Shown piece after piece: positions 34,346 through 55,685 of a stretch of DNA of 64,000 nucleotides; the first letter of the stretch is position 1, and every line of letters starts with the position of its first letter. A program made the translations under genes and the position numbers. Origin of the DNA: Chthoniobacteraceae bacterium. GTDB taxonomy: Bacteria; Verrucomicrobiota; Verrucomicrobiia; Chthoniobacterales; Chthoniobacteraceae. Below the pieces are notes generated by a model. The model did not search any database. It was not told the origin of the DNA and saw only the letters and a list, made by a program, of their open reading frames with translations. Where the stretch lies: the NCBI GenBank assembly GCA_031409655.1, contig JANNXQ010000235.1:26025-90024 (forward strand), written 5' to 3'.

Positions 34346-34495
34346 GATGAGGCAGAGTTTTGCCGGATCGGGGTCCGCGCGGCGAGGCGAAAGGCGCGGG
34401 GCGGCGCGCGCTCCGCGGACGGTGAAAGCGCCGCTGAAGCACGGCGCGTCAAATTTTCCCTTCCCGCCTCTCCATGCATCGGGGAGAAACCCGCG

Positions 34496-36322: not shown

Positions 36323-37054
36323 ATGGCGAATATTTTCCCGCGCGGGAGCAACATTCTCCCAATCAAAATCCTCGTCTGCCTGGCCGTGATCGGACCGGCG
36401 CTGACGGCTGGAGCCTGGTACTACTTTACCCCCAAATACACCCGCGTGGGCTATCAGCCCGCCCAACCGATCCCCTTCCCGCACGACGTGCATTCCAAGC
36501 AACTCGGGATGGATTGCCGCTACTGCCACAGCTTCGTGGAGACGGCCGCGCACTCAAATATCCCGACCACGCAGGTCTGCATCAACTGCCACAACGCGGT
36601 GCAGAAGGACAACCCGAAGCTCGCGCCGCTGCACGAATCCTGGCTGACCGGCAAGCCCATGGAATGGGTACAAATCCACAAGACGCCGGACTACGTGTAT
36701 TTCAATCACGCGGCGCATGTGAACCGTGGCGTCTCCTGCGTGAGCTGCCACGGCAAGGTGAACGAAATGGCGGTCGTCTATCACGCGGAGCCGCACTCGA
36801 TGGCGTGGTGCCTCGAATGCCATCGCGCCCCGGAGAATGCGCTGCGGCCTTTGGATCAGATCACAAATTTGGACTGGACCCCGAAGGCCTTGAACGTCGC
36901 GGACTTCATCGGGAAATACGGCAAGCCGCCCGGCGAGGAGAACACGGATTTCTCGAAAACGGCGTCGCTGACCCAGGAGCAGGTGGGCAAAACTCTGGCG
37001 AAAAAATGGCACATTAATCCGCCGGATAGTAACTGCGCAGGCTGTCACCGATGA
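36323..37054 (+). CDS. actA: Alternative complex III pentaheme cytochrome c
   Basis: Five CxxCH (CRYCH, CINCH, CVSCH, CLECH, CAGCH); QPIPFPHDVH, YFNHAAHV; N-terminal TM. Confidence 0.93.
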   Translation: MANIFPRGSNILPIKILVCLAVIGPALTAGAWYYFTPKYTRVGYQPAQPIPFPHDVHSKQLGMDCRYCHSFVETAAHSNIPTTQVCINCHNAVQKDNPKLAPLHESWLTGKPMEWVQIHKTPDYVYFNHAAHVNRGVSCVSCHGKVNEMAVVYHAEPHSMAWCLECHRAPENALRPLDQITNLDWTPKALNVADFIGKYGKPPGEENTDFSKTASLTQEQVGKTLAKKWHINPPDSNCAGCHR

Positions 37055-40000
37055 GCAAACGAGTTTTCCAACACCCCGTCCCGGCCACCACGGGTAAGAA
37101 ATATTGGCGTTCGCTCGGCGAACTCGGCGATACCCCGGAATTTCGCGGCTGGCTCGAGCGCGAGTTTCCGCAAGGTGCGGCGGAGTTTCAGGGCGGCGAC
37201 GTCTCACGGCGGAATTTCCTGCAATTGATGGGTGCCTCGATGGCCCTGGCCGGCTTCGGCCTCACGGGTTGCCGGCGGATGGAGAAGCATCTGGTGCCTT
37301 TCACGAGGGGCGTGGAGTGGTCCATCCCGGGTAAGACGCTCTTTTTCTCCACCTCCTATCCGACTCGCAAGGGCGCCTCACCGCTGGTCATCGCGACGAA
37401 CGACGGACGGCCCACGAAGGTCGAGGGGAACCCGCTGCATCCGGTCAGCAAAGGCGCGTCCGACGTGCATGCGCAGACTTCGATCCTCGATCTCTATGAC
37501 CCGGATCGGTCCCGGTTTTTCCTCGAAAAGGGCCAGCGCTCGGACGAAGCTGCCTTCACGAAGGCGCTCGCTGAGGCGATGAAAGTTGCGGGCGATGGCT
37601 CGGAGCTTGCCTTCCTCGTGGACGCGAATGAATCCCCGACTCGCGAACGTCTCCGGGCGGAGATCGCGAAGAAATACCCGAAGGCAACGTGGGCGATCTA
37701 CGAACCCCTTGGCGATGATCTCGCGACCCAGGCTGCGCAAGCCGCCTACGGTGGCCTGCGTCCCGTGGCGCAACTCGACAAGGCTGCGGTGATCCTTTCG
37801 ATCGACCACGATTTCCTCGGAAATGATGGCGAAGTCGGGATGGTGCGAGCTTTCAGTGCAAAGCGCAAAGTCGAGGGCCCGGAGTCGAAGATGAACCGGC
37901 TCTACGCGGTTGAAAATCGCTACACCGTGACCGGCGGAATTGCCGATCACCGTCTGCGCCTGCCGGTGAGCCAGATGGGGGCGTTTGCCCTCGCCGTGAG
38001 CAAGAAGGTGTCAGAGTTGACGGCGGATGCGGGTGGTCTCGTGATTTCGAATTCGGTACCGAGTGGGGCGGGTAATTTCCCGGCGGGTTGGGTGGAAGAG
38101 TGCGCTGCGGATCTCGTGGCGCACAAAGGCCAGGCGGTCGTGCTGGTCGGACCGCGTCAGCCAGTGGCGGTGCAGGTCGTAGGGGCATTTATCAATCAGA
38201 TGCTCGGTGCGCCGACGCGAACCCTTGTCGGTCGTGCCGCGACGGTCCAGCCCGGCGCGACCATCACGGACCTTGCGGCAGCCATCAAGAGCAAGCAGAT
38301 CGCCAAGCTTTTCATCCTTGGCGGCAACCCGATCTACAACGCTCCGTCCGATCTCGGTTGGAAGGACTTGCAGGCCTCGGTGGCGCTGGTCGTTCGTCTT
38401 GGTTCGTATGTGGACGAAACCTCCAAGAACGCGACCTGGCACGTTCCGGCCGCTCATTACCTGGAGCAATGGGGTGACGGACGCGCGGCCGACGGGAGTT
38501 ATACCTCCGTCCAGCCGATGATCCTCCCGCTCTTTGGCGGTTGGTCGGAAATCGATCTCCTCGCCACCATCGCTCTCGGGAAAAAGGCCGAAGGTCCGGA
38601 GTTGGTCCAGGAAACGTATCGGAATCTGGTGAAGCCGACGGACTTCACCGCTGGATGGGCAAAGTTCTTGCACGACGGTTTTGTCGCCGGCGAATCCGCG
38701 AAGGCCGAGGTTCTGGCCTTCAATGGCGCGACTGCGGCGGAAGCGCTCAAGGGTCTGAAGGTGGACGCCCCCAGCGATAAGAGCCTCGAAGTCGTCTTCA
38801 TCGCCTGTCCAAAGGTCGATGACGGTCGCTTTAATAACAACGGCTGGCTTCAGGAAATGCCAGACCCGATGACCAAGTTGACTTGGGATAACGCCGCGCT
38901 GATGAGTGCGACCACGGCCCGTCAGCTTGGCGTCAAGGATGGTGGGATGCTCGAGATTACCGTCAATGGGGCGACCCTCACCGTTCCTGCGCTGCGTTTC
39001 CCGGGCCACGCGGATAACTCGATCTCCATCGCGCTTGGATACGGACGTTCCGAGGTTGGTCGGGTTGGCCATGGCACCGGCTTCAATGTCTATCCGCTGC
39101 GCTCCACGGCGGCACCTTATTACGCGCTCGGCGCGACGGCCAAGGCAACCGGTGCAACTTACAAATTGGCGGTTACGCAGGAACACGGCACCCTCGAAGG
39201 TCGTGGCCCTGACCTGACCCGGGAAGGCACCCTGGAGGAGTTTAGGCACGACCCAAATTTCGTGAAGAAGAGCGGCATGGATGCCCACATTCCGCCGAAT
39301 ACGTCGCTCTATACGAATCCCGCCCTCACGGACATGCATCAATGGGGGATGACCGTGGATATGAGCCTTTGCACAGGCTGTTCCGCGTGCATGGTGGCCT
39401 GTCAGTCGGAAAATAACATCCCGATCGTTGGCAAGGAGCAGGTCATCAATGGTCGCGAGATGCACTGGATTCGCACCGATCGTTACTTTGCCTCGCTGAG
39501 CAACGCGGACGAAGAGCCCGAACTGATCTCGCAACCCATGATGTGTCAGCACTGCGAAAGCGCACCGTGCGAAACCGTCTGCCCCGTGAACGCCACGGTG
39601 CATAGCGAAGACGGCCTCAACGTGATGGCCTACAATCGTTGCATCGGCACTCGGTATTGCGCGAACAATTGTCCCTTCAAGGTCCGCCGGTTCAACTTCT
39701 TCGACTACAACGAGCGCAACATCCACAGCCGCAAGGAGGGTAATCCCTTCTCCGGTGTCTATGAGTGGAACCTCACCGCCGATCGTGGCATGGAAGATAC
39801 CCTCAAGCTGCAGAAGAATCCGAACGTCACGGTGCGCATGCGCGGCGTCATGGAGAAATGCACCTTCTGCGTGCAGCGGATTCAGGAGGCGAAGATCGCG
39901 GCTAAAGTCAATGGACGCGACTCCGAGAACATCGAAGACATCCGCATCCCAGCCGATTCCTTTACCAGTGCCTGTGCGCAGGCTTGCCCGGCCGGTGCGA

Positions 40001-40230
40001 TCGTCTTCGGGGACAAGGCAAATCCCGCGAGTAGCGTCTCGAAGCTCATGGCGAAAGAGCGCAGCTACCGCCTCCTTGAGTATTTAAACATCGCTCCCCG
40101 CGTCGTCTATCTCGCACGGATCAAGAACCCGAATCCAAAGATGCCCGGCGCTGGGAAAATCGGCGAGGCCATGCGGTCTCATCATCACGGCGCCAAGCAC
40201 GAAGAATCCGCCAAAGCCGGAGGTCACTAA
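37051..40230 (+). CDS. actB: Alternative complex III molybdopterin-oxidoreductase-like/Fe-S subunit
   Basis: YWRSL, Tat-like [34 protein letters not shown]; Fe-S motifs [34 protein letters not shown]. Confidence 0.95.
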
Positions 40231-40233
40231 CCC

Positions 40234-41661
<1,428 letters not shown>

Positions 41662-42207
41662 ATGGCCGATTACCGCAAAGTTTACGGACTCGGTGCAGAG
41701 TTTGGCAGCGCTGCCGATCTGCTCACCGCCGCTGAGAAAGTCCGCGACGCCGGACACACCAAGTGGGATGTCCACACGCCATTCCCCGTGCATGGCATGG
41801 ACAAAGCCATGGGCCTCGGGAAGTCGTGGCTCTCCGCCCCGGTTTTCATTGGTGGCGCTACCGGACTCCTGACCGCCGTGCTGCTGACTTGCATCCCTTC
41901 GTTTGGGATCTATCCGATCATCGTCAACGGGAAGCCCACTGATTGGCGGACGCTGCCGGCATTCTTTCCGATCATGTTCGAGCTGACGGTCCTTTTCTCG
42001 GCCTTTGCGACGATCGCGGCGGTCCTGATCATGAACCAGTTGCCGAAGTGGTATCATCCCGTTTTCAATTGGGAGCGGTTCAGCCGGGTTTCCGACGACG
42101 GTTACTTCATCGTGATCGAGGCCCGCGATCCCAAGTTCTCAGAATCGAAGACCCGGGAATTGCTCGAAGGCGTCGGCGGCCATCACGTGACCCTCATCCA
42201 CGACTGA
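41662..42207 (+). CDS. actD: Alternative complex III subunit D (DUF3341)
   Basis: DVHTPFPVHGMD, NGKP, PIMFELTVL; gene position. Confidence 0.9.
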   Translation: MADYRKVYGLGAEFGSAADLLTAAEKVRDAGHTKWDVHTPFPVHGMDKAMGLGKSWLSAPVFIGGATGLLTAVLLTCIPSFGIYPIIVNGKPTDWRTLPAFFPIMFELTVLFSAFATIAAVLIMNQLPKWYHPVFNWERFSRVSDDGYFIVIEARDPKFSESKTRELLEGVGGHHVTLIHD

Positions 42208-42208
42208 T

Positions 42209-42895
42209 ATGCTGCGTTATTTTTTCGTTTCCTTCCTTTTGATCACCGTCGCCATCGTCGCGCTGGCTGGGTTCCGTGGCTCGAAGAGTTCGAAGCCCCC
42301 GATCGAGATTTTCCGGGACATGGATCATCAGCCCAAGTTCCAGCCGCAACACCCGAATCGCTTCTTTTCCGACGGTCGCTCCGCCCGCAAGCCGGTTACT
42401 GGGACGATCCCAGTAGGTTACACGATTCCCGGGTCTTTCCTCCAGGCTGGCGCAAAAAACGCCACGATCGCACCCAGTGGTTTTACGAATGCGCCCGATT
42501 ACTACAACACCGGTCGGATCGGCGAGGTTTACGGCGACGGGTTCCCGGCAAATCTAACGGTCAATGAAGCTTTCCTCCGCCGCGGCCGGGAACGGTTCGA
42601 CATAAATTGCTCTGTTTGTCACGGCAAGAGCGGTTTGGGGAACGGTATCGTCGGTCAATACGGACTTGCGGCGATTGCGAACCTTGTTGACGACCGGGTG
42701 AAAGCCATGCCGGACGGTCAGCTCTACTCCACGGTGACTAACGGTAAAAACACCATGGGTGCCTACGGCCCGCAGATCGCCGTTGAGGATCGGTGGGCGA
42801 TCGTGGCGTACATGCGCGCCTTGCAGCGCGCCACTGCCGGCAAGCTGGCAGATCTGCCAGAGGCCCAACAAAAGGAACTCCAAGCGAAAAAATGA
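42209..42895 (+). CDS. actE: Alternative complex III monoheme cytochrome c
   Basis: DMDHQPK, RGRERFDINCSVCHG, GKNTMGAY, DRWAIVAY. Confidence 0.9.
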   Translation: MLRYFFVSFLLITVAIVALAGFRGSKSSKPPIEIFRDMDHQPKFQPQHPNRFFSDGRSARKPVTGTIPVGYTIPGSFLQAGAKNATIAPSGFTNAPDYYNTGRIGEVYGDGFPANLTVNEAFLRRGRERFDINCSVCHGKSGLGNGIVGQYGLAAIANLVDDRVKAMPDGQLYSTVTNGKNTMGAYGPQIAVEDRWAIVAYMRALQRATAGKLADLPEAQQKELQAKK

Positions 42896-44100
42896 GCGAC
42901 CATTCTCACGCCGTTTCCCCACCGGAGCCCGAGACCTTCGACATCAAAGACGCGGGTTCTTTGCCGAAGCTCTTTTTTCTCGCTGGCATCGTTGGGCTGC
43001 TCGGAAGCTTGCTCGGACTCATTATCTCCAAGGAGCAATTCGCGTATTCGTGGCTCTTCGGTTTCAGCTACTGCTTCACGATCTGCGTGGGGGCGCTTTT
43101 CTGGACGTGCCTGCATCACGCCACGGATGCCGAGTGGTCGGTTGTTGTGCGTCGGGTCTTGGAAAATATCGCCTGCCTGATTCCCTACCTCGGCATCGCC
43201 TTTGCGCCATTGTTGGTCTTCTGGTGCGTGCCAACACTCTGGCATTGGTGGAGCATCAATCCTGGGGACGATGTCCTCCTCGACGCGAAGTCTGGCTTCC
43301 TCAACCACGGTTTCTTCCTCTTCCGCATCGCCGCTTACTTCCTGCTTCTGAGCTGGGTCGCTCTGCGTCTGCGTGCGCTTTCGGTTGCTCAGGACGCGGA
43401 CGGCGCGGCGAAGCACACCATGGTCATGCGTAAGTTCGGAATCGGAGGCATTCCCGTCGTTGCCATCTGCCTGACGTTTGCCGCGATCGACTGGCTCATG
43501 GGGCTCGACTGGAAGTGGTTCTCGACCATGTGGGGCGTCTATATCTTTGCCGGTGCGGCAGGGAGTTCGATGTCCCTGCTCGTCCTGATCATCACGGCGA
43601 TGAAGAAGAAAGGTTACCTCAGCTTCGTCAATAAGGAGCATTACCATATCATGGGTAAGTTCATGTTGGCCTTCACCATCTTCTGGGCCTACATCGGTTA
43701 CTCCCAGTACATGCTCATCTGGTATGCGAATATCCCAGAAGAGACGATTTACTTCCGCATCCGCAATACCGAGAGCTGGTGGTATTTCTCCCAATTCCTA
43801 GTGATTGGTCGTTTCTTCCTGCCCTTCCCAATTCTGCTCTTCCAGTTCACGAAAAAGAGCGGGCTCATCAATTTCTGCGCCGTCTGGATCCTGCTGATGC
43901 AAATGCTCGATCTCTTCGTGGTTGTCCTTCCCGCCTTGCACCCGACGGGCGTTCATTTCAGTGATCTCTTCTTCGGCGCGTGCTCGGTGGCCGCGATTGC
44001 CGGGATCCTTGGCTGGATATTCCTCAAGAAGATTGGCCGCACCTGCCTCTTTCCAAAACGCGATCCGCGCCTCGCCGCCTCGCTGAAACTCACGAACTGA
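42892..44100 (+). CDS. actF: Alternative complex III membrane subunit F
   Basis: DWLMGLDWKWFSTMWG, FWAYIGYSQYMLIWYANIPEET; ATGA overlap with actE. Confidence 0.9.
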   Translation: MSDHSHAVSPPEPETFDIKDAGSLPKLFFLAGIVGLLGSLLGLIISKEQFAYSWLFGFSYCFTICVGALFWTCLHHATDAEWSVVVRRVLENIACLIPYLGIAFAPLLVFWCVPTLWHWWSINPGDDVLLDAKSGFLNHGFFLFRIAAYFLLLSWVALRLRALSVAQDADGAAKHTMVMRKFGIGGIPVVAICLTFAAIDWLMGLDWKWFSTMWGVYIFAGAAGSSMSLLVLIITAMKKKGYLSFVNKEHYHIMGKFMLAFTIFWAYIGYSQYMLIWYANIPEETIYFRIRNTESWWYFSQFLVIGRFFLPFPILLFQFTKKSGLINFCAVWILLMQMLDLFVVVLPALHPTGVHFSDLFFGACSVAAIAGILGWIFLKKIGRTCLFPKRDPRLAASLKLTN

Positions 44101-44101
44101 A

Positions 44102-44641
44102 ATGGCCGATACCGAATCCCGCAAGCCCAACGCTTTCCTGGTTTTCCTCGGGAGCGCCCTCGCCCTTACGGTCGTCATCGTCATCGGCAGCGGATTCGTG
44201 GGCTCCAAACCCAAGGTCGAGACGGTGGACTCAAAACGCGGCCAACTCCGGATCGAAGCTCGGGAAAAACTCGATAAGGCCAATCTCGAACAATCGACCG
44301 TCGCAGACTGGGTGGACAAGGAAAAGGGGATCGTGCGCCTTCCGGTGGATCAGGCTATTAAACTGGTCGCCGCTGATCTTGCCGGGAAAAAGCCCGCGCC
44401 CTCGACGGTGAAGGTGGATCCTCCGCTGCCGATGCCGCCGCCCTACGATCCAAATGCCGCTGAGCCCGCTCCCGGGGCGCTCCCTTCTTCACCACAGGGT
44501 TCTGACACCATCCGTTTTGATCCGCCGGTACTGGCGCCATCAGCCGCGGTCGCCCCTGTTGCCGAGAGCCTGACCGCCAGCGCCGCGCCGGACCGGCCGC
44601 CGCTCGTCCATTGGACAGAAAAATCCGAGCCTACGAAATGA
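44102..44641 (+). CDS. ACIII-associated single-pass membrane protein (possible ActG equivalent)
   Basis: One TM, WVDKEKGIVRLPVDQAI motif, Pro-rich tail; tightly coupled to its neighbours. Confidence 0.6.
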   Translation: MADTESRKPNAFLVFLGSALALTVVIVIGSGFVGSKPKVETVDSKRGQLRIEAREKLDKANLEQSTVADWVDKEKGIVRLPVDQAIKLVAADLAGKKPAPSTVKVDPPLPMPPPYDPNAAEPAPGALPSSPQGSDTIRFDPPVLAPSAAVAPVAESLTASAAPDRPPLVHWTEKSEPTK

Positions 44642-46134
44642 CCGCCGCCGCCCCCGCTCCCACACCCGCCGCGCCACTCGGAAGCGCGCCCGTCTCGGCA
44701 ACGCCGGCTCCGGGCCGCGTCCTCGGAATCGAGCGCGCGCGGATCGACGCTTCGACGAGCGGTCCTGTGCTCTTCTTCTTTGGCTCTGCTGTCCTTTGGC
44801 TGCTCGCTTCCACCGTGCTTGGGCTCATTTCTTCGGTGCAACTGCATTCCCCGGAGTTCCTCGCTGGCTGCCCATTTCTGACCTACGGACGCGTCCTTCC
44901 CGCCTACCACCACGCGATCTTCTACGGATGGGCGACTCAGGCCGGGATTGGCGTCGGGCTCTGGCTTCTCTCCCGACTTTGCCGTGTGGAGATGAAACTC
45001 ACGGGAATCCTGATGATCGCGGCCTTGTTCTGCAATATCGGCCTGACTGTCGGCGTCGCGCAGATCCTCGGAGGAAAGACGAGCGGGGTGGAAGGGATGG
45101 AACTCACTGGTGGAGCGGCCGGCATTATGTTTGTCGGCTACGGGCTCGTCGCTCTCTGGGCGGCAATGATCTTCGGCCTGCGCCGCCAAGGTCCCGCTTA
45201 TATTTCAGTCTGGTATCTGCTTGCGGCGTTCCTTTGGCTGCCGTGGTCTTTCGGTTTGGGGTATTTCGGCCAGCAATTGTCTGGTGTTCAAGGAGTCATG
45301 CACAATGTGCTCGCCGCATGGGCCAGCCACAGTCTTTTGCACATGTGGATCACCGGGGTCGGCCTCGCGGCCGCTTACTACCTGATTCCCAAGGTCATCA
45401 ATCGCCCCGTCTTTAGTTACAACCTTGCCGCCATCGGATTTTGGTCATGGCTCGTCTTTGGCGGTTTGACTTCCATGGTCCGCTTGAGCGGTGGACCGAT
45501 CCCCGCATGGCTCGTGACGTTGAGCATCGCGGCGCACATCCTTCTCATCGTTCAGATCGTAACGGTTACTGCCAACTTGGTCCTCACCATGCGCGGCAAC
45601 TACCACATGGTCTATCACTCGCCGACAATCAGGTTCACTTTCTTCGGAGCCATCGCGTTTTCGATTGCCAGTGTGCTCGGCTTGTTCGCTTCTCTTCGCT
45701 CTGTTGACCGGGTGTTGCATTTCACGGAAGCCACGACGGCGATTGATACGGCGATTCTTTACGCTTTCTTCAGCATCGTCATGTTTGGTGCGATTTATTA
45801 TATCATGCCGCGGCTCGTCGGTTGTGAATGGCTCTCTTCGACGATGATCAGCCTGCACTTCTGGGGTGCGGCTTATGGGGGCGGCATGGCGATCTTGTTG
45901 CTCCTCTTCGGGGGGATCGCCAGCGGCTTGACGCTCGCTGATCCTGAGGCGTTGTTTTCTCAGGTCGTACAAATCGGTTACTACTCGCACCTTGGTCGGA
46001 CGATAGGGCTTATCCTGCTCTCGCTCGGACATTTGATCTTCGCTCTGCACTTCCTGCTCATGCTCCTGCGCATCGGTCAGCCCGGTGGTCAGGCCACACT
46101 CTTCGCCCCAATCGGGGACGAGTCCCACCCATGA
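44638..46134 (+). CDS. CcoN-like (cbb3 subunit I fold) membrane protein lacking most metal ligands
   Basis: CcoN landmarks (LTYGR, YISVWY, YYLIPK..RPVFSYNL..GFW, HFT, GAIYYIMPRL) are present, but canonical His positions read Y, V, R, I and T. Confidence 0.85.
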   Translation: MTAAAPAPTPAAPLGSAPVSATPAPGRVLGIERARIDASTSGPVLFFFGSAVLWLLASTVLGLISSVQLHSPEFLAGCPFLTYGRVLPAYHHAIFYGWATQAGIGVGLWLLSRLCRVEMKLTGILMIAALFCNIGLTVGVAQILGGKTSGVEGMELTGGAAGIMFVGYGLVALWAAMIFGLRRQGPAYISVWYLLAAFLWLPWSFGLGYFGQQLSGVQGVMHNVLAAWASHSLLHMWITGVGLAAAYYLIPKVINRPVFSYNLAAIGFWSWLVFGGLTSMVRLSGGPIPAWLVTLSIAAHILLIVQIVTVTANLVLTMRGNYHMVYHSPTIRFTFFGAIAFSIASVLGLFASLRSVDRVLHFTEATTAIDTAILYAFFSIVMFGAIYYIMPRLVGCEWLSSTMISLHFWGAAYGGGMAILLLLFGGIASGLTLADPEALFSQVVQIGYYSHLGRTIGLILLSLGHLIFALHFLLMLLRIGQPGGQATLFAPIGDESHP

Positions 46135-46823
46135 ACCGCTCGATCCAACTTTACGCCGGCGTCATCGGCTCCTTCGCGCTATCCGTCACCGCTCTTATCC
46201 TCCTGCCAAAGGCGCAGATCGGGGCTCTCCAGCCTCAGACCGCGGAGGATGAGGGGAAGATCGTTGATATTTTTCCGATCGAAAATGTTGGCGTCGCAGC
46301 GCAGGGCCGCGAGGTCTATGCTTCACTTGGATGCTACTATTGCCACTCACAGCAGGTCCGCGATGCGCAGAATGGTTTGGATATCGAACGCGGTTGGGGG
46401 CAACGGAGGACCGTGGCGCGCGATTACATTTTCGAGCAGCCTCCCTTTCTTGGAGGCGCTCGGGTCGGGCCGGATCTGGCAAATGTCGGCTCCGCCAAGT
46501 GGCGCAACGAACCTGAGAACGAAACGCGCAAGCCAAAGAAGCGCGATGCCGCCTGGCAACTCCTGCATCTCTACAACCCGCGCACGGTCATCACCGAGTC
46601 GAACATGCCTTCGTATCGCTACCTCTTTGAAGAGCGCAAGGTTACTGGGCAACGGTCTGCCGATGCGCTCCCGGTGGCCGCAACCAAAGGTGGCGACTAC
46701 GAAGTGGTTCCAAAAGCTGAAGCGAAGGCCTTGGTTGGTTACCTCATGACGCTCGACCGGAGTCATCCGCTGAAAGAAGTGAAGGCGGCAATCGCCTCCT
46801 CACCCGCGCCCGCCGCCAAATGA
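46131..46823 (+). CDS. ccoO: CcoO-like monoheme cytochrome c (cbb3 subunit II family)
   Basis: GREVYASLGCYYCHSQQVR, RVGPDLANVG, HLYNPR...SNMPSY. Confidence 0.85.
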   Translation: MNRSIQLYAGVIGSFALSVTALILLPKAQIGALQPQTAEDEGKIVDIFPIENVGVAAQGREVYASLGCYYCHSQQVRDAQNGLDIERGWGQRRTVARDYIFEQPPFLGGARVGPDLANVGSAKWRNEPENETRKPKKRDAAWQLLHLYNPRTVITESNMPSYRYLFEERKVTGQRSADALPVAATKGGDYEVVPKAEAKALVGYLMTLDRSHPLKEVKAAIASSPAPAAK

Positions 46824-48214
46824 GCACGCCATCCGATCGTCCGACACCACCCGAGAATCCCGACCAGATTGACTACCGGGAAGCCGGTGACATTACTGAA
46901 GTGCATTCCGCGATTCAGCGGGAGCACGTTGAGCCCACTGCCAAGGTCACTCCGATTCCGCTTTGGCTCACCGCGGTGTGCGGCGCTGCCATGGTCTGGG
47001 CTGGAACCTATTTCGGCATCTTCAACGGGGGACTGAGTGGCAGCGTCTTCAACGAATACGAAAGCTCACCGGCTTTGCTTTTCCCGCCACCTGCGGGTGG
47101 AGCGGGCGCCGTTGCCGTCGCGGAAGCTCCTCTGACCCTAGCCCAATCTGGAAAGGTCGTTTACAGCCAATGTGTCGCGTGTCACCAGACGAGCGGCATG
47201 GGTGTCCCGGCGCAGTTCCCCGTCTTGGCGGGTTCCGAGTGGGTGAAGGGCGGCGAAAAGCGGCTCATCGGGATTTTGCTCAAGGGTATGACTGGTCCAA
47301 TCACGGTGCTGGGTAAGCAGGGTTCGTATGCAGGGAACATGGTTCCCTGGGAGGCGACGCTCTCCTCAAAGAAGATCGCTGCGGTGGCGAGTTACATCCG
47401 CTCTGAGTGGGGTAATGGGGCGCCCGAAGTGACCGAAGCCGACGTCGAACTCGCGAAGAAAGAATTTGCCGCGGTTAAGACTCAGTTTACTGAGGCGCAA
47501 TTGCTGCAGATTCCTGACGAGAACTACGATGGTGCTGGTGCCGCGCCAGCCACGACCAGCGCGCCCGCCAAGCCTGCCGCGGTGGTTGCTGCTGCTGCTG
47601 CTCCATCCGCGGCCGCTGCCGTTCCAGCGGCAGGCATTGCTTCCGCGGTCACCGCGGCTGCCGATCCGGCGCAGATGGCCATGGGGAAAGGCGTTTACAT
47701 GACGGTTTGTGTGGCCTGTCATCAGCCAAATGGGGCTGGTTTGCCGATGGTATTCCCGCCACTCACAAAGTCTCCCTACGTCAGTGGCCCGGCAGATCGT
47801 CTGGCCGCGATTATTCTCAAGGGGAACGCCGGTCCGTTCACCTTTGATGGCAAGCTTTACAACAACATTATGGTCCCCCAGGAGGCCATGTTGGACGATG
47901 TCAAGATTGCCGCAGTCATGACTTTCGTCAGAGCGAGCTTCGAAAACAATGCGCCCCCGGTGAACGCGGAAGTGGTAAGTGAAACGCGCAAGAGGTTTCT
48001 CGATCGGAAGACCCCCTGGACTCAGCCCGAACTCGACGCGTGGGGTGCGGCACCAGCGGCACTGCCTCCCGCTCCGGCGGCCGAAGTTCCAACACCGGTT
48101 GCTGCCCCAGTAAGTCCCGCCCCCGCGGCACCGGTGACGCCCTCGGTTCCCGCACCTGCCCCAGTCCCCGCGACTCCGGTTGCACCGACTCCCAGCCCTG
48201 CTCCTGCCAACTAA
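46820..48214 (+). CDS. Membrane-anchored diheme cytochrome c with Ala/Pro linkers
   Basis: TM helix, two class I cytochrome c domains (CVACH twice, each with a distal Met in M-V-P). Confidence 0.9.
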   Translation: MSTPSDRPTPPENPDQIDYREAGDITEVHSAIQREHVEPTAKVTPIPLWLTAVCGAAMVWAGTYFGIFNGGLSGSVFNEYESSPALLFPPPAGGAGAVAVAEAPLTLAQSGKVVYSQCVACHQTSGMGVPAQFPVLAGSEWVKGGEKRLIGILLKGMTGPITVLGKQGSYAGNMVPWEATLSSKKIAAVASYIRSEWGNGAPEVTEADVELAKKEFAAVKTQFTEAQLLQIPDENYDGAGAAPATTSAPAKPAAVVAAAAAPSAAAAVPAAGIASAVTAAADPAQMAMGKGVYMTVCVACHQPNGAGLPMVFPPLTKSPYVSGPADRLAAIILKGNAGPFTFDGKLYNNIMVPQEAMLDDVKIAAVMTFVRASFENNAPPVNAEVVSETRKRFLDRKTPWTQPELDAWGAAPAALPPAPAAEVPTPVAAPVSPAPAAPVTPSVPAPAPVPATPVAPTPSPAPAN

Positions 48215-48249: not shown

Positions 48250-48750
48250 ATGTTGACGAAAACTCTCTTCTCGCTCGGAACAGCCACTTTGCTCTCAGTC
48301 GCAAGCTTTGCGCAGGAGACAGATCAGATGAAGCTCGGTAAGACAACCTACATGATGACGTGCGTTGCCTGTCACCAGCCGAACGGTGCTGGACTGCCGA
48401 TGGTTTTTCCGCCGATTACGAAGTCCCCTTACGTCATGGAATCAGCAGAGCGCCTCGCCGCGATCATTCTCAAAGGGAATGCGGGCCCTTTCGTGGTGGA
48501 CGGCAAGCCTTACAACAACATCATGGTCCCGCAGGAAGCGATGCTCGATGATACCAAGATTGCGGCTGTCATGACCTACGTCCGCGCAAACTTCGGCAAT
48601 ACTGCTGGACCCGTCGCCGTCGAAGTCGTAGCCGCCGCCCGCAAAAAATTCCTCGATCGCAAGACGCCCTGGTCCCAAGCCGAACTCGACGCTTGGAAAG
48701 ACGATGCCGCCCCTGCTGCTGCGTCTCCTCCAGCAGCGCCGACGAACTAG
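48250..48750 (+). CDS. Secreted monoheme cytochrome c
   Basis: Signal peptide MLTKTLFSLGTATLLSVASFA; CVACH; near-copy of domain 2 of the upstream gene. Confidence 0.9.
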   Translation: MLTKTLFSLGTATLLSVASFAQETDQMKLGKTTYMMTCVACHQPNGAGLPMVFPPITKSPYVMESAERLAAIILKGNAGPFVVDGKPYNNIMVPQEAMLDDTKIAAVMTYVRANFGNTAGPVAVEVVAAARKKFLDRKTPWSQAELDAWKDDAAPAAASPPAAPTN

Positions 48751-48872: not shown

Positions 48873-50822
48873 ATGGCCGCAACCACCACTTCTCATGAGC
48901 CCGCCGCTCATGCCCATGCTCACGACGATCATCAGCACGAGCAGCACTGGATCTGGAAATACGTCTTTTCCACCGATCACAAGACGATCGGTATCCAATA
49001 CGGGCTGACCGGACTCGTTTTTCTCTTTTTCGGTTTCACTTTGATGATGGTGATGCGTTGGCAGCTTGCGCATCCCGACACCGTGGTGCCGCTAATCGGT
49101 CAGTTCTTTGGGGATATCGGAGTCTGGCTCAACCAGGATGCTCGCTCGCTCGCTACGCTGGCGAAGACCGACAGCTTCGACTCATGGTTCTGGCTGCGCG
49201 CCATTTCCGAAATTTTTCCTGGCGGCAAGCTTTCCGCGGACGGCTACAATTCCTTCGGGGCGATGCACGGCACCATCATGGTGTTCTTCGGGATTGTACC
49301 AATCGCCTTCGCATCCTTCGGAAATTTCGTGGTGCCCCTGCAGATCGGGGCGCCCGACATGACCTTCCCGAAGCTTAACATGGCAAGCTACTGGTGTTTT
49401 TTCATCAGTTGTATCTTTATGTTGGTCTCGTTTCTCGTTCCGGGTGGTGCGGCAAAGTCCGGGTGGACTTCTTATTCACCTCTTGCCGGAATGGCCGATC
49501 TCGGGCCTGGAAATCATCCTTTCTTCAATGGTCAGACGCTTTGGGTCACTGGGATGGTCTTCAACATTACGGCTTCTCTCCTTGGGTCGGTGAATTTCAT
49601 CGCCACGATCATTCAACTCCGGGCTCCGGGGATGACTTGGATGCGCCTTCCTTTTTTCGTCTGGGCGCAATTCGTCACGGCCTTCCTTTTGCTGCTTGCC
49701 TTCCCGCCGCTCGAAGCCGCAGCGGTCATGCAGTTTATGGATCGGGTGTTCGACACGAGTTTCTTCATGCCGACTGGCCTCATCGTGAACCAGCAAGCCA
49801 CGCAATGGAGCGGAGGTGGTAGTCCGGTGCTCTGGCAGCACCTCTTCTGGTTCCTAGCCCATCCGGAAGTTTACGTCCTGATTCTTCCCGGTATCGGCAT
49901 GGTTGCGGAGATCATCGCCTGCAACACCCGCAAGCCGCTCTATGGTTACAAGGCCATGGTAGGTGCCATTTTCGTCCTTGGGTTCCTCAGCTTCATCGTC
50001 TGGGCGCATCATATGTATATGACCGGCATGGGAGCCAAGGTCGCGGCGTTCTTCCAGACGACCACGATTATCATCTCCATCCCTTCCGTGATTTTGATCA
50101 CGGCTTTGCTCCTCTCACTGTGGGGTGGTTCGATTCGTTTCACCACACCGATGCTTTTCGCCACGGCGTTTCTACCGATGTTCGGAATCGGCGGCCTGAC
50201 CGGGATCCCGCTCGCCTTTAATGCCGTCGGTCTCTACCTGCACGATACCTATTACGTCATCGCACATTTTCACTACGTCGTCGCGCCAGGCACCATCTTT
50301 GCAATCTTTGCGGGGATTTATCACTGGTACCCGAAAGCCACTGGAAGGATGCTTGGTGAGTTTCTCGGAAAAGTGCATTTCTGGGGTTCGCTCATCTTCA
50401 TAAATGGAGTCTTCGCACCTATGTTTCTTCAGGGGATGGCAGGAATGCACCGCCGTTGGTATGACGGTGGGGCGATCTACGACAAGATCTCAAATCAGGT
50501 GGTGCTAGGAAAAACGGGCATCGAATGGAATGTGGTCATCTCCACGTCTGCATTTCTCCTTTGTGCGGCTCAGTTGCCCTTCATCTGGAATTTCTTCTGG
50601 AGCATGAAATTTGGGAAGCGCGTGCCGAACGACAATCCTTGGGACGCAACCACCGTCGAATGGGATACGCCTTCGCCTCCGGGACACGGCAATTTCATCA
50701 AGGACATCAAAGTCCATCGTGGACCCTACGAGTATAGCATCCCCGGTGCGGATAAGGACTTCACGCCTCAGACCGAGGAGCCCAGCGATCGGAATAGAGC
50801 TCCTGTCGCCGCCAAACACTGA
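48873..50822 (+). CDS. ctaD: Cytochrome c oxidase subunit I, A1-type heme-copper oxidase
   Basis: STDHKTIG, MHGTIM, PDMTFPKLN, WFLAHPEVY, VWAHHM, AHFHY, GMHRRW. Confidence 0.96.
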   Translation: MAATTTSHEPAAHAHAHDDHQHEQHWIWKYVFSTDHKTIGIQYGLTGLVFLFFGFTLMMVMRWQLAHPDTVVPLIGQFFGDIGVWLNQDARSLATLAKTDSFDSWFWLRAISEIFPGGKLSADGYNSFGAMHGTIMVFFGIVPIAFASFGNFVVPLQIGAPDMTFPKLNMASYWCFFISCIFMLVSFLVPGGAAKSGWTSYSPLAGMADLGPGNHPFFNGQTLWVTGMVFNITASLLGSVNFIATIIQLRAPGMTWMRLPFFVWAQFVTAFLLLLAFPPLEAAAVMQFMDRVFDTSFFMPTGLIVNQQATQWSGGGSPVLWQHLFWFLAHPEVYVLILPGIGMVAEIIACNTRKPLYGYKAMVGAIFVLGFLSFIVWAHHMYMTGMGAKVAAFFQTTTIIISIPSVILITALLLSLWGGSIRFTTPMLFATAFLPMFGIGGLTGIPLAFNAVGLYLHDTYYVIAHFHYVVAPGTIFAIFAGIYHWYPKATGRMLGEFLGKVHFWGSLIFINGVFAPMFLQGMAGMHRRWYDGGAIYDKISNQVVLGKTGIEWNVVISTSAFLLCAAQLPFIWNFFWSMKFGKRVPNDNPWDATTVEWDTPSPPGHGNFIKDIKVHRGPYEYSIPGADKDFTPQTEEPSDRNRAPVAAKH

Positions 50823-50851: not shown

Positions 50852-51877
50852 ATGCAAATTCCTCACGAAGTCCAGGCCCGTCCTGATACCGGGCTCTATA
50901 ATGCGAAACTTGGCATCTGGCTCTTTCTCGCATCGGAAGTCATGCTCTTCGGCGGGCTCTTCTCCGCCTATATCTTCCTCCGCATGGGCGCCGAACCGGG
51001 ATACTGGCCGCGCGGCCTGCTCAATGTTCCGGTAGGCGCGGGTAACACGGCGATCCTCATTGCTTCCTCGGTGACGGTGGTGCTGGCGTGGGCGTCGTTG
51101 AAGATGCGGAAGTTCCAGCAGTATCGGCTTTGGATGGGAATTTCGATCCTTTGCGGGGCGCTGTTCCTCATTGTCAAACTCGCTTACGAATGGCCCCAGA
51201 AGTTCCATCACTTCGGTGCCTTCATTAAGAAGGGTGCTCTGGAAAAGTATGAGCCGTATCTCGGCAACAAGTATCTGGCCGAGAGAAAGCTCGAGAAACG
51301 AGTCGAAATCTCGGGGCATCTCCATGAGGTCATCATCGACCCAACGGGCGTCGATAAGGCGCGGCTGGATGCCTTTCTCAAGAAGCATCACCTGACGGCG
51401 GAGGCGGACCATAACGATCACAACCTGCAGATGGTCAGTGGGAAGCACCTGACTCCCGGCATAGCGGAGGATCTCGAAAAGCTTCCGGGCATGAAGTTCA
51501 AAGCATTCGAGGTGGGTTTGGATCCCATCAATGCCGCTCCCACGGACCCCGAGAGCGATGAGCCTCACTTTTGGTACAAGGGGTCAACGGAAAAGAAGGG
51601 CCGGATCGCACGCGAAGACATCGAGAGTTACAGTGCATTTGCACCCAAGCACAGTTCTTACTTCGCGGTTTATTTCACGATTACTGGCATCCACGGCTTG
51701 CATGTTTTGGCCGGTGTTTTGATTATGGGCTATCTTTGGCTCCCGATCGAAGGCGGCGCGAATCTCTTCAAGCGCAATCCTGAGCACCTGGCCAACCGCG
51801 TGGAAGTCGTCGGGCTCTTTTGGCACTTCGTTGACCTCGTCTGGATCTTCGCGTTCCCGATCTTTTACCTCCTCTAG
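50852..51877 (+). CDS. ctaE: Cytochrome c oxidase subunit III with large soluble insertion
   Basis: GIWLFLASEVMLFGGLF, NTAILIASS, TGIHGLHV, FWHFVDLVW. Confidence 0.9.
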   Translation: MQIPHEVQARPDTGLYNAKLGIWLFLASEVMLFGGLFSAYIFLRMGAEPGYWPRGLLNVPVGAGNTAILIASSVTVVLAWASLKMRKFQQYRLWMGISILCGALFLIVKLAYEWPQKFHHFGAFIKKGALEKYEPYLGNKYLAERKLEKRVEISGHLHEVIIDPTGVDKARLDAFLKKHHLTAEADHNDHNLQMVSGKHLTPGIAEDLEKLPGMKFKAFEVGLDPINAAPTDPESDEPHFWYKGSTEKKGRIAREDIESYSAFAPKHSSYFAVYFTITGIHGLHVLAGVLIMGYLWLPIEGGANLFKRNPEHLANRVEVVGLFWHFVDLVWIFAFPIFYLL

Positions 51878-51886
51878 GCCAAACTC

Positions 51887-52273
51887 ATGACCGAATCCCA
51901 CGAACAAGGCAAACCAGTAGCGCATGGCACCGCGCCTGAAACGGCCACGCCTGGCGATCATGGCCACGCAGCGCATGACATGCACCTCGGCCTCTATCTT
52001 GGGGTCGGAGTATTCCTGCTCGTCGCCACCGTCATCACGGTCTGGCTGTCCTTCGTCGATTTCGGCAGCCACGCGGCAAACGTGACCGTCGCGATGATCG
52101 TCGCCACCATCAAGGTTGGCTTTGTGGCTGCGATCTTCATGCATTTGAAGGGGGAATCGAAGACGGTCTGGCGCTTTCTCTACTTCACCATCTTTTTTGT
52201 CGCAGGACTGTTCCTGCTCACGCTGCTCCACTATGCCGACCCGATTTTTGGGACTGGTTACAATAAGCACTAA
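51887..52273 (+). CDS. Cytochrome c oxidase subunit IV family protein
   Basis: His-rich N-terminus, three TM helices, ATIKVGFVAAIFMHLK. Confidence 0.85.
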   Translation: MTESHEQGKPVAHGTAPETATPGDHGHAAHDMHLGLYLGVGVFLLVATVITVWLSFVDFGSHAANVTVAMIVATIKVGFVAAIFMHLKGESKTVWRFLYFTIFFVAGLFLLTLLHYADPIFGTGYNKH

Positions 52274-52796: not shown

Positions 52797-53585
52797 ATGC
52801 TGAATAAACTCCTGGGAATCGTCCCCAACGCCTCCGAGCACGGCTACCTGATCGACCACCTGCTGGAGTTCTGTCATTGGTTCATGCTCCTGCTCTTCGT
52901 CGGTTGGACCGGTTATTTCTTCTACACGATCTTCCGCTTTCATAAGTCGAGGAATCCGAAGGCCAATTATCATGGGGTGAAGAGTAAGGCATCGGCCCAT
53001 CTTGAGTTTTCCGTTGTCTTGGTCGAGGCGGTATTGCTCCTTGGTTTTGCCCTTCCGTTGTGGGGTAAGCGCGTGAATCCTGACCAGTGGCCGGATAGAG
53101 ACAAAGCGATTAGTGTACACGCGATCGGGGAGCAGTTTGGCTGGAATTTTCATTACCCTGGTCTCGATGGGGTCTTCGGTCGCCGGGAAACCGGACTTGT
53201 GGATGGCAATAATCCCGTGGGCCTCGACATGAATGATCCTGCCGCGAAGGACGATATCCTTTCGAGAAACGAGTTGCATCTTGTGAACCATAAACCCGCG
53301 GTCATCCAGATTTCGTCGAAGGACGTGATTCATGGTTTTTCACTCCAGCACATGCGCATGTCTCAGGATGCGATTCCTGGGAGTAAGATCCCGATGTGGT
53401 TCCGTCCGATCAAGGCGGGTGAGTTTGAAATCGTCTGTTCCCAGCTTTGCGGCGCTGGCCACTACGCGATGAAGGCCCTAATGATCGTCGAGGATCAGGC
53501 AAAGTATGATGAGTGGTTCGATGAGAGGTTTAAAATGCAGCATCCCGACGCAGCAGCCGCGGCGGCCAAGGTGGCGGCGCAGTGA
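52797..53585 (+). CDS. ctaC: Cytochrome c oxidase subunit II (CuA), no fused cytochrome c
   Basis: Two TM helices, EQFGWNFHYP, DVIHGF, CSQLCGAGHYAM. Confidence 0.93.
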   Translation: MLNKLLGIVPNASEHGYLIDHLLEFCHWFMLLLFVGWTGYFFYTIFRFHKSRNPKANYHGVKSKASAHLEFSVVLVEAVLLLGFALPLWGKRVNPDQWPDRDKAISVHAIGEQFGWNFHYPGLDGVFGRRETGLVDGNNPVGLDMNDPAAKDDILSRNELHLVNHKPAVIQISSKDVIHGFSLQHMRMSQDAIPGSKIPMWFRPIKAGEFEIVCSQLCGAGHYAMKALMIVEDQAKYDEWFDERFKMQHPDAAAAAAKVAAQ

Positions 53586-53598
53586 GCGGCGCTTCCAG

Positions 53599-54774
53599 GT
53601 GAACGCAACCTCGACAGCGGTTGACGGGGACCCGGGGCTGGCGCGCTTTGCGAAAGTGGTCGTCGCGCTAACCTTCCTCCTCATTCTCATCGGCGGGCAT
53701 ACGACGACCGCTGGTGCCGGGATGGCGTTTCCGGATTGGCCGATGAGCCACGGATCTTTCAATCCTGATGGCTGGTGGAGCGATGGAATGCAGCGGCTTG
53801 AGCATGGTCACCGTTACCTGGCTGAGGCGGTTGGTTTGGCGATCGGGGTGCTTTGCGCGTGGGTCTGGCGTGCGGGAAAAGCGGTGCCTCTTTCGTTTCT
53901 CGGTGCGGGGCTGCTCGCAGTTGCGGCGGCGCTGCTGAAGCTCCCGAAAGTCACGGTGGTGCATATTGGACTGTGGTCTTCGGTGGTGCTTTTCCTCGGG
54001 CTGCTCTGGTTTTTCTCGCGGAAGGATCGTGCTCCACGCAGCGCAGCGGTGCGTTGGCTGGCGCTCGCGGCATTTTTCGGAGTCTGTGTGCAGGCCGTGC
54101 TCGGGGGCATGCGGGTCATTCACGATCCGGCTGGCACCCTCGCCGGCAGCGTGGGCACGGCCACGGTCCTGCGTGTGGTGCATGGATGTTTCGCCCAATT
54201 TGAGCTTTGCCTCCTCGTGGCCATCGCGGCGCTGCTCTCGCCGGCGTGGGCGCGAGCCTGGCCGAAGGTTGAACTGCGCGGTGTGGCGCGACTCGCCTGG
54301 ATCACGGCAGCGTTCGTGTTTCTCCAACTCGCCGTCGGCGCCTCGATGCGCCATCTCGGCGCTGGCCTCGCGATCCCGACTTATCCGCGGATGGCGGATG
54401 GCGGATGGGTGCCGAGCGCGCACAATGCGCTCATCGACCTCAATTTCACGCACACCCGTCTTGGCGCCGTGGTCGTGTCCATTCTCGTGCTCGCCCTCGT
54501 CGCGCTGGCCTTTCGGAGAGCCGGTAGCGCCTTGGCCATTACCCGGCCCAGCGCGCTCTTGCTGGCCTTGCTCATTGTCCAGTTCAGCCTTGGAGTCCTC
54601 GTCATATGGAAAATGCGTCCGCCAATTCTCACCACGCTCCACGTCGTGAACGGCGCAGCCCTACTCGCGACCCTGGTCCTGCTCGCCGTGCGCGCGAGCC
54701 GCACCGCGCGCCCGCTCACCGTGGCCAGCAAATCGCCGGCGCGGACGCGGGAACTCACGGAGGCGCACGCGTGA
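53599..54774 (+). CDS. ctaA: Heme A synthase (COX15/CtaA)
   Basis: GMAFPDWP, EHGHR, VHGCFAQ, GASMRH, FTHTR, TTLHV; GTG start inferred. Confidence 0.88.
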   Translation: MNATSTAVDGDPGLARFAKVVVALTFLLILIGGHTTTAGAGMAFPDWPMSHGSFNPDGWWSDGMQRLEHGHRYLAEAVGLAIGVLCAWVWRAGKAVPLSFLGAGLLAVAAALLKLPKVTVVHIGLWSSVVLFLGLLWFFSRKDRAPRSAAVRWLALAAFFGVCVQAVLGGMRVIHDPAGTLAGSVGTATVLRVVHGCFAQFELCLLVAIAALLSPAWARAWPKVELRGVARLAWITAAFVFLQLAVGASMRHLGAGLAIPTYPRMADGGWVPSAHNALIDLNFTHTRLGAVVVSILVLALVALAFRRAGSALAITRPSALLLALLIVQFSLGVLVIWKMRPPILTTLHVVNGAALLATLVLLAVRASRTARPLTVASKSPARTRELTEAHA

Positions 54775-55685
54775 GCCGTCCCCTGCAAGACGCCGCTATC
54801 TCGATGGAAATCCCACGCGTGGATGATGAGCAGGGGATCGTCGGGGATGTGCTGGCGCTGACCAAGGCGCGCCTCAGCTTCCTCGTCGTCGTCACTACCT
54901 TTGTCGGTTTCTGCATGGCTTCCGGGCCGCGGCTGGACTGGCTCTTACTCGTCCAGGCAGTGCTCGGCACCACCCTGGCTGCCTTCGCTGCCGCGGCGCT
55001 GAACCAATACTTCGAGTCGCACGTTGATCGACTCATGGAGCGCACCCGCCATCGCCCCCTCCCAGCCGGCCGCATGCGGCCTGGCACGGCTCTTGCCTTT
55101 GGCTTGGTGCTCGGGGCCATCGGTGTCGTCTGGCTCGCCCTCGCGGCGAATACCCTCAGCGCTTCCCTCGCTGCCGCGACCATCCTGATCTACATCGCTT
55201 TTTACACCCCGCTGAAGCGCCGCACTTCGCTCTGCACCATCGTCGGCGCCGTCGCCGGGGCGATTCCGCCAATCATTGGTTGGACCGCCATCCGGCCGTC
55301 CTTCGATGCCGGGGCGTGGATTCTCTTCGGCGTGCTTTTCACCTGGCAGATGCCGCACTTCCTCGCGATCGCCTGGATGTATCGCGATGAATATGCGCAG
55401 GCTGGCTTCGTCATGTTGCGGCGCGACGACCTGAGCGGCTGCGCCACCGCCATGCAGAGCCTGCTCTACACCATCGCGCTCACGGTCATCACCATCTTCC
55501 CCTTCAGCCGAGGCATGAATAACGGCGTCTATCTGACCGGCGCGCTCATCCTCGACGCCCTGCTCCTTGCCTGCGCCGTACAATTCCTGATGCAGCGCAA
55601 TCGTCCCGCCGCCCGCCGCCTCTTTTTCGCCTCCATCATTTTCCTCCCGCTGCTGCTCGGTCTCATGATCTTCACCAAGGTCTGA
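54771..55685 (+). CDS. ctaB: Heme O synthase (protoheme IX farnesyltransferase)
   Basis: LTKARL, DRLMERTRHRPLPAG, YTPLKR, GAIPPIIGW, WQMPHF...YRDEY. Confidence 0.95.
   Translation: MSRPLQDAAISMEIPRVDDEQGIVGDVLALTKARLSFLVVVTTFVGFCMASGPRLDWLLLVQAVLGTTLAAFAAAALNQYFESHVDRLMERTRHRPLPAGRMRPGTALAFGLVLGAIGVVWLALAANTLSASLAAATILIYIAFYTPLKRRTSLCTIVGAVAGAIPPIIGWTAIRPSFDAGAWILFGVLFTWQMPHFLAIAWMYRDEYAQAGFVMLRRDDLSGCATAMQSLLYTIALTVITIFPFSRGMNNGVYLTGALILDALLLACAVQFLMQRNRPAARRLFFASIIFLPLLLGLMIFTKV

Follow-up and report, generated by a model that had tools for sequence, protein, structure and literature searches.

A gene cluster for alternative complex III (ACIII) in a 64,000-nucleotide stretch of DNA from a Chthoniobacteraceae bacterium (GenBank assembly GCA_031409655.1, contig JANNXQ010000235.1, positions 26,025 to 90,024 of the forward strand; the window) contains ccoN* (44638-46134, + strand), a homologue of the cbb3 oxidase subunit CcoN which lacks the heme b, heme b3 and CuB ligands, one His excepted, and the active-site Tyr. 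CcoN* is probably a cofactor-free scaffold that would tether c-type cytochromes at the exit of ACIII. The same ligand loss appears to have recurred about ten times in Verrucomicrobia, and it is because of this recurrence that CcoN* is read as a probable membrane platform for cytochromes.

Catalytic Residues, Fold and Selection

The open reading frame (ORF) of ccoN* encoded 498 amino acids with no internal stop, a full-length CcoN homologue. It was coupled by ATGA overlaps to the gene before it (44638-44641) and to ccoO after it (46131-46134). The register was set by a phmmer alignment to Pseudomonas stutzeri CcoN (3MK7; E 7e-18), which had no gaps around the seven catalytic sites. With P. stutzeri numbering given first, H60 was replaced by Y90, Y251 by G275, H257 and H258 by V281 and R282 (nt 45478-45483), H345 by I369, and H347 by T371. 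The sole metal His remaining was H207 (H231), so that five of six metal His and the active-site Tyr were gone. H60 and H347 are taken here to bind the low-spin heme b, H345 heme b3, and H207, H257 and H258 CuB. The intact CcoN of the same genome (L002) gave an identical register at the catalytic sites when used as the reference. A first-pass annotation of the window, made from the letters alone, had described this loss of five His and the cross-linking Tyr in an intact frame, coupled on both sides, with its multi-helix membrane pattern retained and an intact CcoO beside it, and had allowed that a proper alignment might return His to the canonical positions; the description was borne out in each part, and neither reference returned His at any of the five lost sites. 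CcoO (46131-46823, +), a membrane-anchored monoheme cytochrome c matching PF02433 FixO over the cut-off, had both CYYCH and Met159.

CcoN* matched the Pfam family COX1 over the cut-off and scored 91 bits with TIGR00780 (cut-off 583). Its AlphaFold model had 12 membrane helices (predicted local distance difference test, pLDDT, 89.9; predicted template-modelling score, pTM, 0.90), the predicted fold being that of subunit I of the C-family, and the top Foldseek matches of the model were cbb3 CcoN chains (3MK7: template-modelling score, TM, 0.85; root-mean-square deviation 3.1 Å).

A search that scored 8000 proteins yielded 903 homologues, and residues were counted in the best 120 of the 903 (55-96% identity). 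None of the six His was present in 42 of these, one in 65 and two in 13, and never more than two; Tyr at the Y251 position was present in 0/120. By position, His occurred 0 times at H60, 20 at H207, 0 at H257, 0 at H258, 6 at H345 and 65 at H347. Because these homologues also lacked the ligands, the loss in CcoN* is not a sequencing artefact. Close homologues that carried names were from Chthoniobacteraceae, and the source database called them 'cytochrome c oxidase cbb3-type subunit 1', which is the mis-annotation that had been foreseen.

Nei-Gojobori ratios of nonsynonymous to synonymous substitution (dN/dS) of ccoN* against three congeners were 0.105, 0.091 and 0.105, which are rough since dS exceeded 1, and the least saturated pair in the family gave 0.16. 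Distant pairs gave 0.4-1.0 with saturated synonymous sites and were left unused. These ratios indicate that ccoN* is under purifying selection; neutral decay among orthologues, the outcome which would have overturned the earlier description, was not seen and is rejected at a dN/dS of about 0.1. Among clade-specific cytoplasmic motifs, D37 was present in 46/47 dead copies, and the C-terminal stretch 478-489 was almost invariant in the family. Judged by its sequence, CcoN* falls outside the catalytic cbb3 family and is a conserved, real pseudo-enzyme; the protein very probably binds no cofactors. The signature of heme-copper nitric oxide (NO) reductases (hemes plus FeB/CuB on three His and Glu, Asn or Asp) was also absent, as the His were missing and the only conserved Glu (E155) sat in a periplasmic loop. 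With the ligands gone and no conserved substitutes, the claim that CcoN* reduces neither O2 nor NO in the canonical way is well supported.

Dead and Intact Copies at Orthologous Loci

A survey of the phylum matched 125/401 genomes, and 100 of the matches listed were taken as regions of at most 20 kb. Ten regions with other CcoN types and no act genes were set aside, leaving 90 orthologous loci. N and O genes were present in all 90, and act genes were seen beside ccoN in 88/90. All seven catalytic residues were present in 44/90 loci (hereafter intact), and 46/90 were dead (Verrucomicrobiae). The residues that replaced the ligands differed among dead lineages, and the frames were full-length in the aligned dead loci. 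Partial states were also found: the Tyr alone was lost in L251, part of the CuB pair was lost in L256, L203 and L193, and only the two low-spin heme ligands remained in L032 and L034. L251, L256, L203 and L193, together with L087, represent decay at an early stage. In the family of the window, 60/81 genomes matched, and 47/47 act-type loci read (46 genomes) were dead, as were 3 more divergent ones. Two genomes of the family had an intact ccoS-ccoN-ccoO paralogue outside the act operon (L176, L177) and retained the dead act-operon copy (L168/L167).

Dead and intact copies were interleaved on trees of ACIII genes. A FastTree phylogeny of ActB, ActC and ActF (84 loci) had 11 changes between dead and intact, or 14 losses if no regain was allowed. 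An IQ-TREE phylogeny of ActC and ActF had 12 changes, 10 of them forced by strongly supported branches, and carried long-branch warnings. A single dead clade was rejected (approximately unbiased test, p-AU 6e-45; 38 hand-picked rows). These trees point to about 10 independent losses in Verrucomicrobia (10-14 changes). The CcoN tree itself nested intact copies within dead ones, which was read as long-branch attraction, and losses were therefore counted on ACIII genes. In several dead loci, the closest intact N, O or P belonged to the neighbours that ACIII also pointed to; on some branches an intact cassette may have been regained by transfer. Relative to ACIII, N evolved 3.1-fold faster in dead lineages, and the increase was 1.6-fold in O and 1.2-fold in P.

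Positions at least 90% conserved in 42 intact copies were compared with 23 dead representatives. All ligands and the equivalents of T215, S240 and R57 were relaxed in the dead representatives, and 63 sites, mainly Gly, Pro, Trp and periplasmic loops, were kept across independent dead lineages. Core helices 6-10 were the most relaxed part of dead CcoN. No new His, Cys or Met was shared across dead lineages among the 23 representatives. The alternative His that had been suggested as a new site were infrequent in the best 120 of the 903 homologues (H91 in 2, H92 in 5, H231 in 20, H235 in 6), and the new His site was rejected.

The polar proton channel of the C-family, presumably formed by T215, Y223, S240, H243 and Y317, was incomplete in CcoN*. 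T239 (T215) and Y247 (Y223) were kept, as were E152 and E155, with Ala at S240, Gly at H243 and Phe at Y317; Gly at the H243 position was found in intact relatives too. Equivalents of T215, S240 and Y317 were present in 42/42 intact copies, and in 12, 9 and 21 of 47 dead copies, respectively.

Heme c Partners and ccoS

The cytochromes encoded beside dead ccoN genes mostly kept their heme sites. The P-type heme motif and Met were aligned in 90/93 dead loci; one of the three misses lay at a contig end, and the other two held CxxCH that was misaligned. The heme motif of CcoO was kept in 45/47 dead loci and its axial Met in 38/47, with losses in 0/44 intact loci. The motif was lost in L096 and L103, and the Met was replaced by Lys, Cys, His or Arg in L058, L075, L077, L089, L104, L105, L108, L111 and L127. 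In the window, a CcoP-like membrane-anchored cytochrome c (46820-48214, +; 2 CxxCH; PF00034/PF13442) followed ccoO, so that both O- and P-type subunits were in the operon, the latter under the CcoP cut-off (TIGR00782, 55 bits). It consisted of an N-terminal helix and two heme c domains with Pro/Ala-rich linkers, and its heme motif was conserved.

A ccoS-like gene stood between actG and ccoN in 42/44 intact loci and in 1/46 dead loci (L087, eroded); in the two intact loci without it, act genes were absent from the stretch taken. Dead loci of the family of the window had ccoS in 0/47 cases. The actG-like gene of the window overlapped ccoN* and left no gap for ccoS, a maturation gene of the C-family that was thus missing from the window, and ccoS was not found anywhere in the genome (95% complete). 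On five intact ccoS examples, Pfam FixS was over the cut-off in 3, just under in 1 and absent in 1. CcoS helps form the heme b-CuB centre, according to the available part of PMC12648545.

Other Acceptors and Genus g12

An A-family subunit I was present in 37/37 genomes with a dead copy and in 36/43 with an intact copy (family-level matches), and all 7 genomes without it carried an intact copy (Fisher p 0.013, which is overstated because 4/7 exceptions were one genus and kin are non-independent). Three of the seven exceptions were also without canonical CcoN, which suggests that the intact ACIII-linked form is a working oxidase.

One ORF after actF in genus g12 joined an 11-12-helix domain with CcoO and P domains, and was full-length in 13/27 genomes. 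The fusion comprised an eroded CcoN fold, CcoO and a P-type cytochrome (775 amino acids; L296:9703-12027; also L299-L308 and L310-L312). Pfam missed the helix domain, which matched the family profile with a probability of 95.5 (E 1e-8) and was predicted to fold like CcoN (TM 0.65-0.72), the fold being kept at 14% identity. The actAB genes of g12 lay elsewhere in the genome, apart from the fusion. PF00115 found no heme-copper oxidase in 5/5 g12 genomes; cytochrome bd, cytochrome c peroxidase, actA and actB were present in 5/5, with actB split in one. The fusion supports a scaffold, and the missing oxidase implies that the acceptor varies.

Other Features of the Window

From actA through ctaA, ctaB and sco, the genes formed one long cluster on a single strand with ccoN*, ccoO and the P-type gene in the middle, and the order actABCDEF followed by oxidase genes was that of ACIII clusters. 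The first-pass annotation did not take in the ACIII operon upstream, the aa3 genes downstream, the lack of ccoS or the recurrence of independent losses. The cluster began with actA (36323-37054, +), a pentaheme cytochrome c of ACIII with 5 CxxCH, QrcA-like and cytochrome c7 matches and no extra monoheme domain, followed by actB (37051-40230, +; molybdopterin-oxidoreductase-like and Fe-S domains, QrcB/QrcC-like matches, TIGR04519), actC (40234-41661, +; NrfD-like membrane subunit, PF03916), actD (41662-42207, +; PF11821 ActD, E 1e-55) and actE (42209-42895, +; monoheme cytochrome c, 1 CxxCH, PF13442). A membrane subunit without a Pfam or NCBIfam match (42895-44100, +) was labelled actF-like by its position after actE in the conserved operon. 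The product of 44102-44641 (+), which is taken here to be ActG, was a single-helix membrane protein with no family match and a conserved position, translationally coupled to ccoN*. Upstream of ccoN in four dead loci (L075, L077, L089, L100), an ActG-like protein was fused to a cytochrome c domain, and L125 had an insertion of about 7 kb between actF and actG.

Downstream of the P-type gene, a monoheme cytochrome c (48250-48750, +) shared 77% identity with the second of the two heme domains in the CcoP-like protein, apparently by a recent duplication; the number of heme domains differed among relatives. The aa3 genes were coxA (48873-50822, +; A-family subunit I with intact His/Tyr motifs, TIGR02891 551 bits), coxC and coxD (subunits III and IV; 50852-52273, +; TIGR02842 in two stretches, TIGR02229 over the cut-off), coxB (52797-53585, +; subunit II with a CuA motif, PF00116, no CxxCH and no fused cytochrome c domain) and the assembly genes ctaA, ctaB, sco and DUF420 (53506-56694, +; PF02628, PF01040, PF02630, PF04238). 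The match of subunit III (50852-51877) to the short CyoC-type model fell into two segments separated by a long insertion; in Flavobacterium johnsoniae, it is a shortened subunit III that contacts ACIII. An intact and canonical CcoNO fusion lay on another contig of the genome (L002, contig C64), beside an AraC-like regulator. A scan of the window for promoters and terminators gave nothing above chance. A large Gly/Ser-rich ORF (31403-35203, -), unrelated to ccoN*, resembled a secreted repeat protein and was divergent from a membrane glycosyltransferase-like gene.

Proposed Role and Alternatives

The ancestral verrucomicrobial operon would have comprised actA-G, ccoS, ccoN, ccoO and ccoP and specified a cbb3 oxidase coupled to ACIII, which about half of the sampled lineages still have intact. 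Lineages with another acceptor at hand would repeatedly have lost the O2 chemistry, together with the proton path and ccoS, and the CcoN shell would have been retained as a membrane platform holding CcoO and a tethered P-type cytochrome beside ACIII. Electrons would pass from quinol through ActC, ActB and the hemes of ActA/ActE to the P-type cytochrome(s), where CcoO would serve for docking or relay, and on to CuA of the neighbouring aa3 oxidase. By analogy with cytochrome cy in Rhodobacter and with the extra c domains in ACIII-oxidase pairs, the tethered P-type heme domain would carry electrons from ActA/ActE to CuA. This scaffold, which the earlier annotation had listed among its options, fits best with the ligand loss, fold, selection, gene order, loss of ccoS, repetition, heme c retention and fusion observed here; CcoN* would bind CcoO, CcoP and ACIII physically. 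A wider and more tentative proposal, held at somewhat worse than even chances, is that the dead CcoN-CcoO-CcoP block is a general electron-exit adaptor of verrucomicrobial ACIII which arose at least 10 times. The acceptor would be aa3 in the window, ba3 or aa3 in methanotrophs, and a peroxidase or multiheme protein in g12, and Methylacidiphilum would have no cbb3 oxidase at all and owe its high O2 affinity to ba3.

Several observations weigh against the scaffold as proposed. The ccoNOP module is dispensable in at least one lineage: in L294 (G039), actG was followed directly by coxC, coxD and coxB, and ccoNOP and coxA were gone from the operon. The aa3 genes adjoined only some dead loci, and g12 keeps the shell without a PF00115 match, so that feeding aa3 is not the only purpose of the shell; the notion that it always feeds aa3 was weakened by the same five genomes. 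An A-family oxidase is insufficient for the loss, because 36/43 genomes with an intact copy also have one. The heme of CcoO is not always needed, since its motif was lost in 2/47 and its Met replaced in 9/47 dead loci. The absence of ccoS is not diagnostic alone, because the genome of the window is without ccoS and yet has an intact CcoNO, and the counts in dead loci came from a ccoS profile seeded from intact loci.

CcoN* could instead be a structural or assembly subunit that stabilises ACIII or an ACIII-aa3 supercomplex, with the cytochromes needing no platform. The clade-specific cytoplasmic motifs (D37 and the 478-489 stretch), the erosion of the CcoO heme in some lineages and the persistence of the gene in the act operon despite an intact paralogue elsewhere (L176/L177 against L168/L167) would agree with this; the shell was, however, always kept with O and P and fused to both in g12, the P-type heme was hardly relaxed, and the L294 lineage runs ACIII without the shell, which makes a purely structural role unlikely. 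Reuse of the emptied cavity by a sensor, for lipid or quinone binding or for another non-redox function would account for the fold kept at 14% identity in g12 and for purifying selection persisting after full ligand loss. A shared new function would predict convergent residues, and their absence counts against it: the old ligand sites were filled differently in each lineage, no new polar or metal-binding residue was shared, and helices 6-10 were the most relaxed, leaving such reuse improbable.

Still less probable are a conduit for protons or ions and a metal site newly built from non-canonical His, both of which the earlier annotation had put forward beside the scaffold. T239, Y247, E152 and E155 are kept in CcoN*, but the T215, S240 and Y317 equivalents were relaxed in dead copies, with Ala and Phe at the last two in CcoN*, and H91, H92, H231 and H235 were not conserved. 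The earlier annotation was supported in part: its non-canonical, mis-annotated protein with a possible scaffold role stood, whereas the new His site was not supported and the conduit is unlikely. In favour of a decaying relic held by translational coupling, dead copies evolved threefold faster than intact ones and were lost completely once (L294); dN/dS of 0.09-0.105 (0.16 in the least saturated pair), full-length dead frames and 63 kept sites have largely refuted such a relic. A functional oxidase or NO reductase whose ligands have migrated has the database names and the COX1 match in its favour, and is hardly credible with no conserved substitute ligand and ccoS lost; heme ligands and a metal site persist in the odd families that are known (PMC11214002, as far as its available part goes).

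Comparison with Known Systems

About half of the sampled ACIII-linked 'cbb3 oxidases' in Verrucomicrobiae, an abundant class of soil and freshwater, would be unable to reduce O2, to go by their residues. Claims of high-affinity respiration made from genomes would be wrong for those with a dead copy unless a separate canonical CcoNO is present. Methylacidiphilum is a concrete case: its named proteins, with 1/6 His and no Tyr, are counted in papers as a high-affinity oxidase. Kruse 2019 ties the co-located 'cbb3' to high O2 affinity (available part of PMC6688271), and the available parts of PMC10205796 and PMC8170126 list it as one of three terminal oxidases. The proteins of M. kamchatkense, M. 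fumariolicum, M. sp. Yel and M. infernorum (P0271, P0277, P0278, P0273, P0282, P0283) had the H258 equivalent only and no Tyr. In four genomes with this residue pattern, PF00115 gave no further C-family subunit; an unclear match that was inspected is NorB-like. Chthoniobacter flavus P0062 had none of the six His and no Tyr. In strain IT6, lack of O2 induced the ba3 genes but not the 'cbb3' genes (bioRxiv 2024.01.15.574570, in the part available), which fits a non-oxidase reading of 'cbb3'.

Searches of open-access text turned up no account of ligand loss in this family; subscription papers (Refojo 2010, Ducluzeau 2008) could mention it. The available parts of Murali 2024 (PMC11214002) and Degli Esposti 2019 had nothing on an ACIII-linked dead CcoN family, and those of PMC13608581, PMC13274419 and bioRxiv 2026.01.22.701106 nothing on ligand loss. 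Adjacency of ACIII and C-family genes in Verrucomicrobia is already in print (PMC8498564, citing Refojo 2010, in the portion seen). New here is a repeatedly evolved pseudo-oxidase whose likeliest role is that of a cytochrome scaffold at the ACIII exit. It offers a replicated natural series, from intact copies through loss of the Tyr and CuB pair and then of heme ligands and ccoS to fusion, in which a respiratory enzyme would have turned scaffold. It also makes testable, in culturable hosts, how ACIII hands on electrons where neither ActA nor subunit II has a cytochrome domain to serve as the bridge.

The closest systems are the intact ACIII-linked CcoSNOP of Opitutaceae, Puniceicoccaceae and Terrimicrobiaceae, with an orthologous operon and the same subfamily (36-43% identity), which represent the direct ancestral state. 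They differ in keeping all seven catalytic residues (76/80 named loci, from retrieval patterns biased to intact copies) and ccoS. P. stutzeri CcoN (3MK7/5DJQ) shares with CcoN* the 12-helix fold, about 20% identity, the N-O-P gene order and the partner cytochromes, but five of its six His and the Tyr are missing from CcoN*, as are two channel residues and ccoS. The superfamily has other members that lack the active-site Tyr (eNOR, sNOR, gNOR, nNOR, NOD and N2O red); unlike CcoN*, they keep hemes and a metal site, and gNOR is described as the first in which even a single active-site His was replaced (both from the available part of PMC11214002).

Cytochrome cy of Rhodobacter capsulatus (6XKW) has a helix locked beside CcoN and a mobile heme domain on a long linker (PMC7876108, in the part available), and may by analogy serve as a model for the working of the P-type cytochrome; it feeds an active CcoNOP, whereas CcoN* cannot accept electrons. 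The ACIII-aa3 of F. johnsoniae and the ACIII-caa3 of Rhodothermus marinus resemble the window in that an A-family oxidase comes after the ACIII genes. In the solved ACIII-oxidase pairs, the complexes are bridged by an additional cytochrome c domain, according to the available parts of PMC5928083, PMC8361435 and PMC8552683. In F. johnsoniae and R. marinus, the bridging domain belongs to ActA or to subunit II, whereas ActA and CoxB of the window have none, and the candidate bridge is the cytochrome that would be held by the dead oxidase shell.

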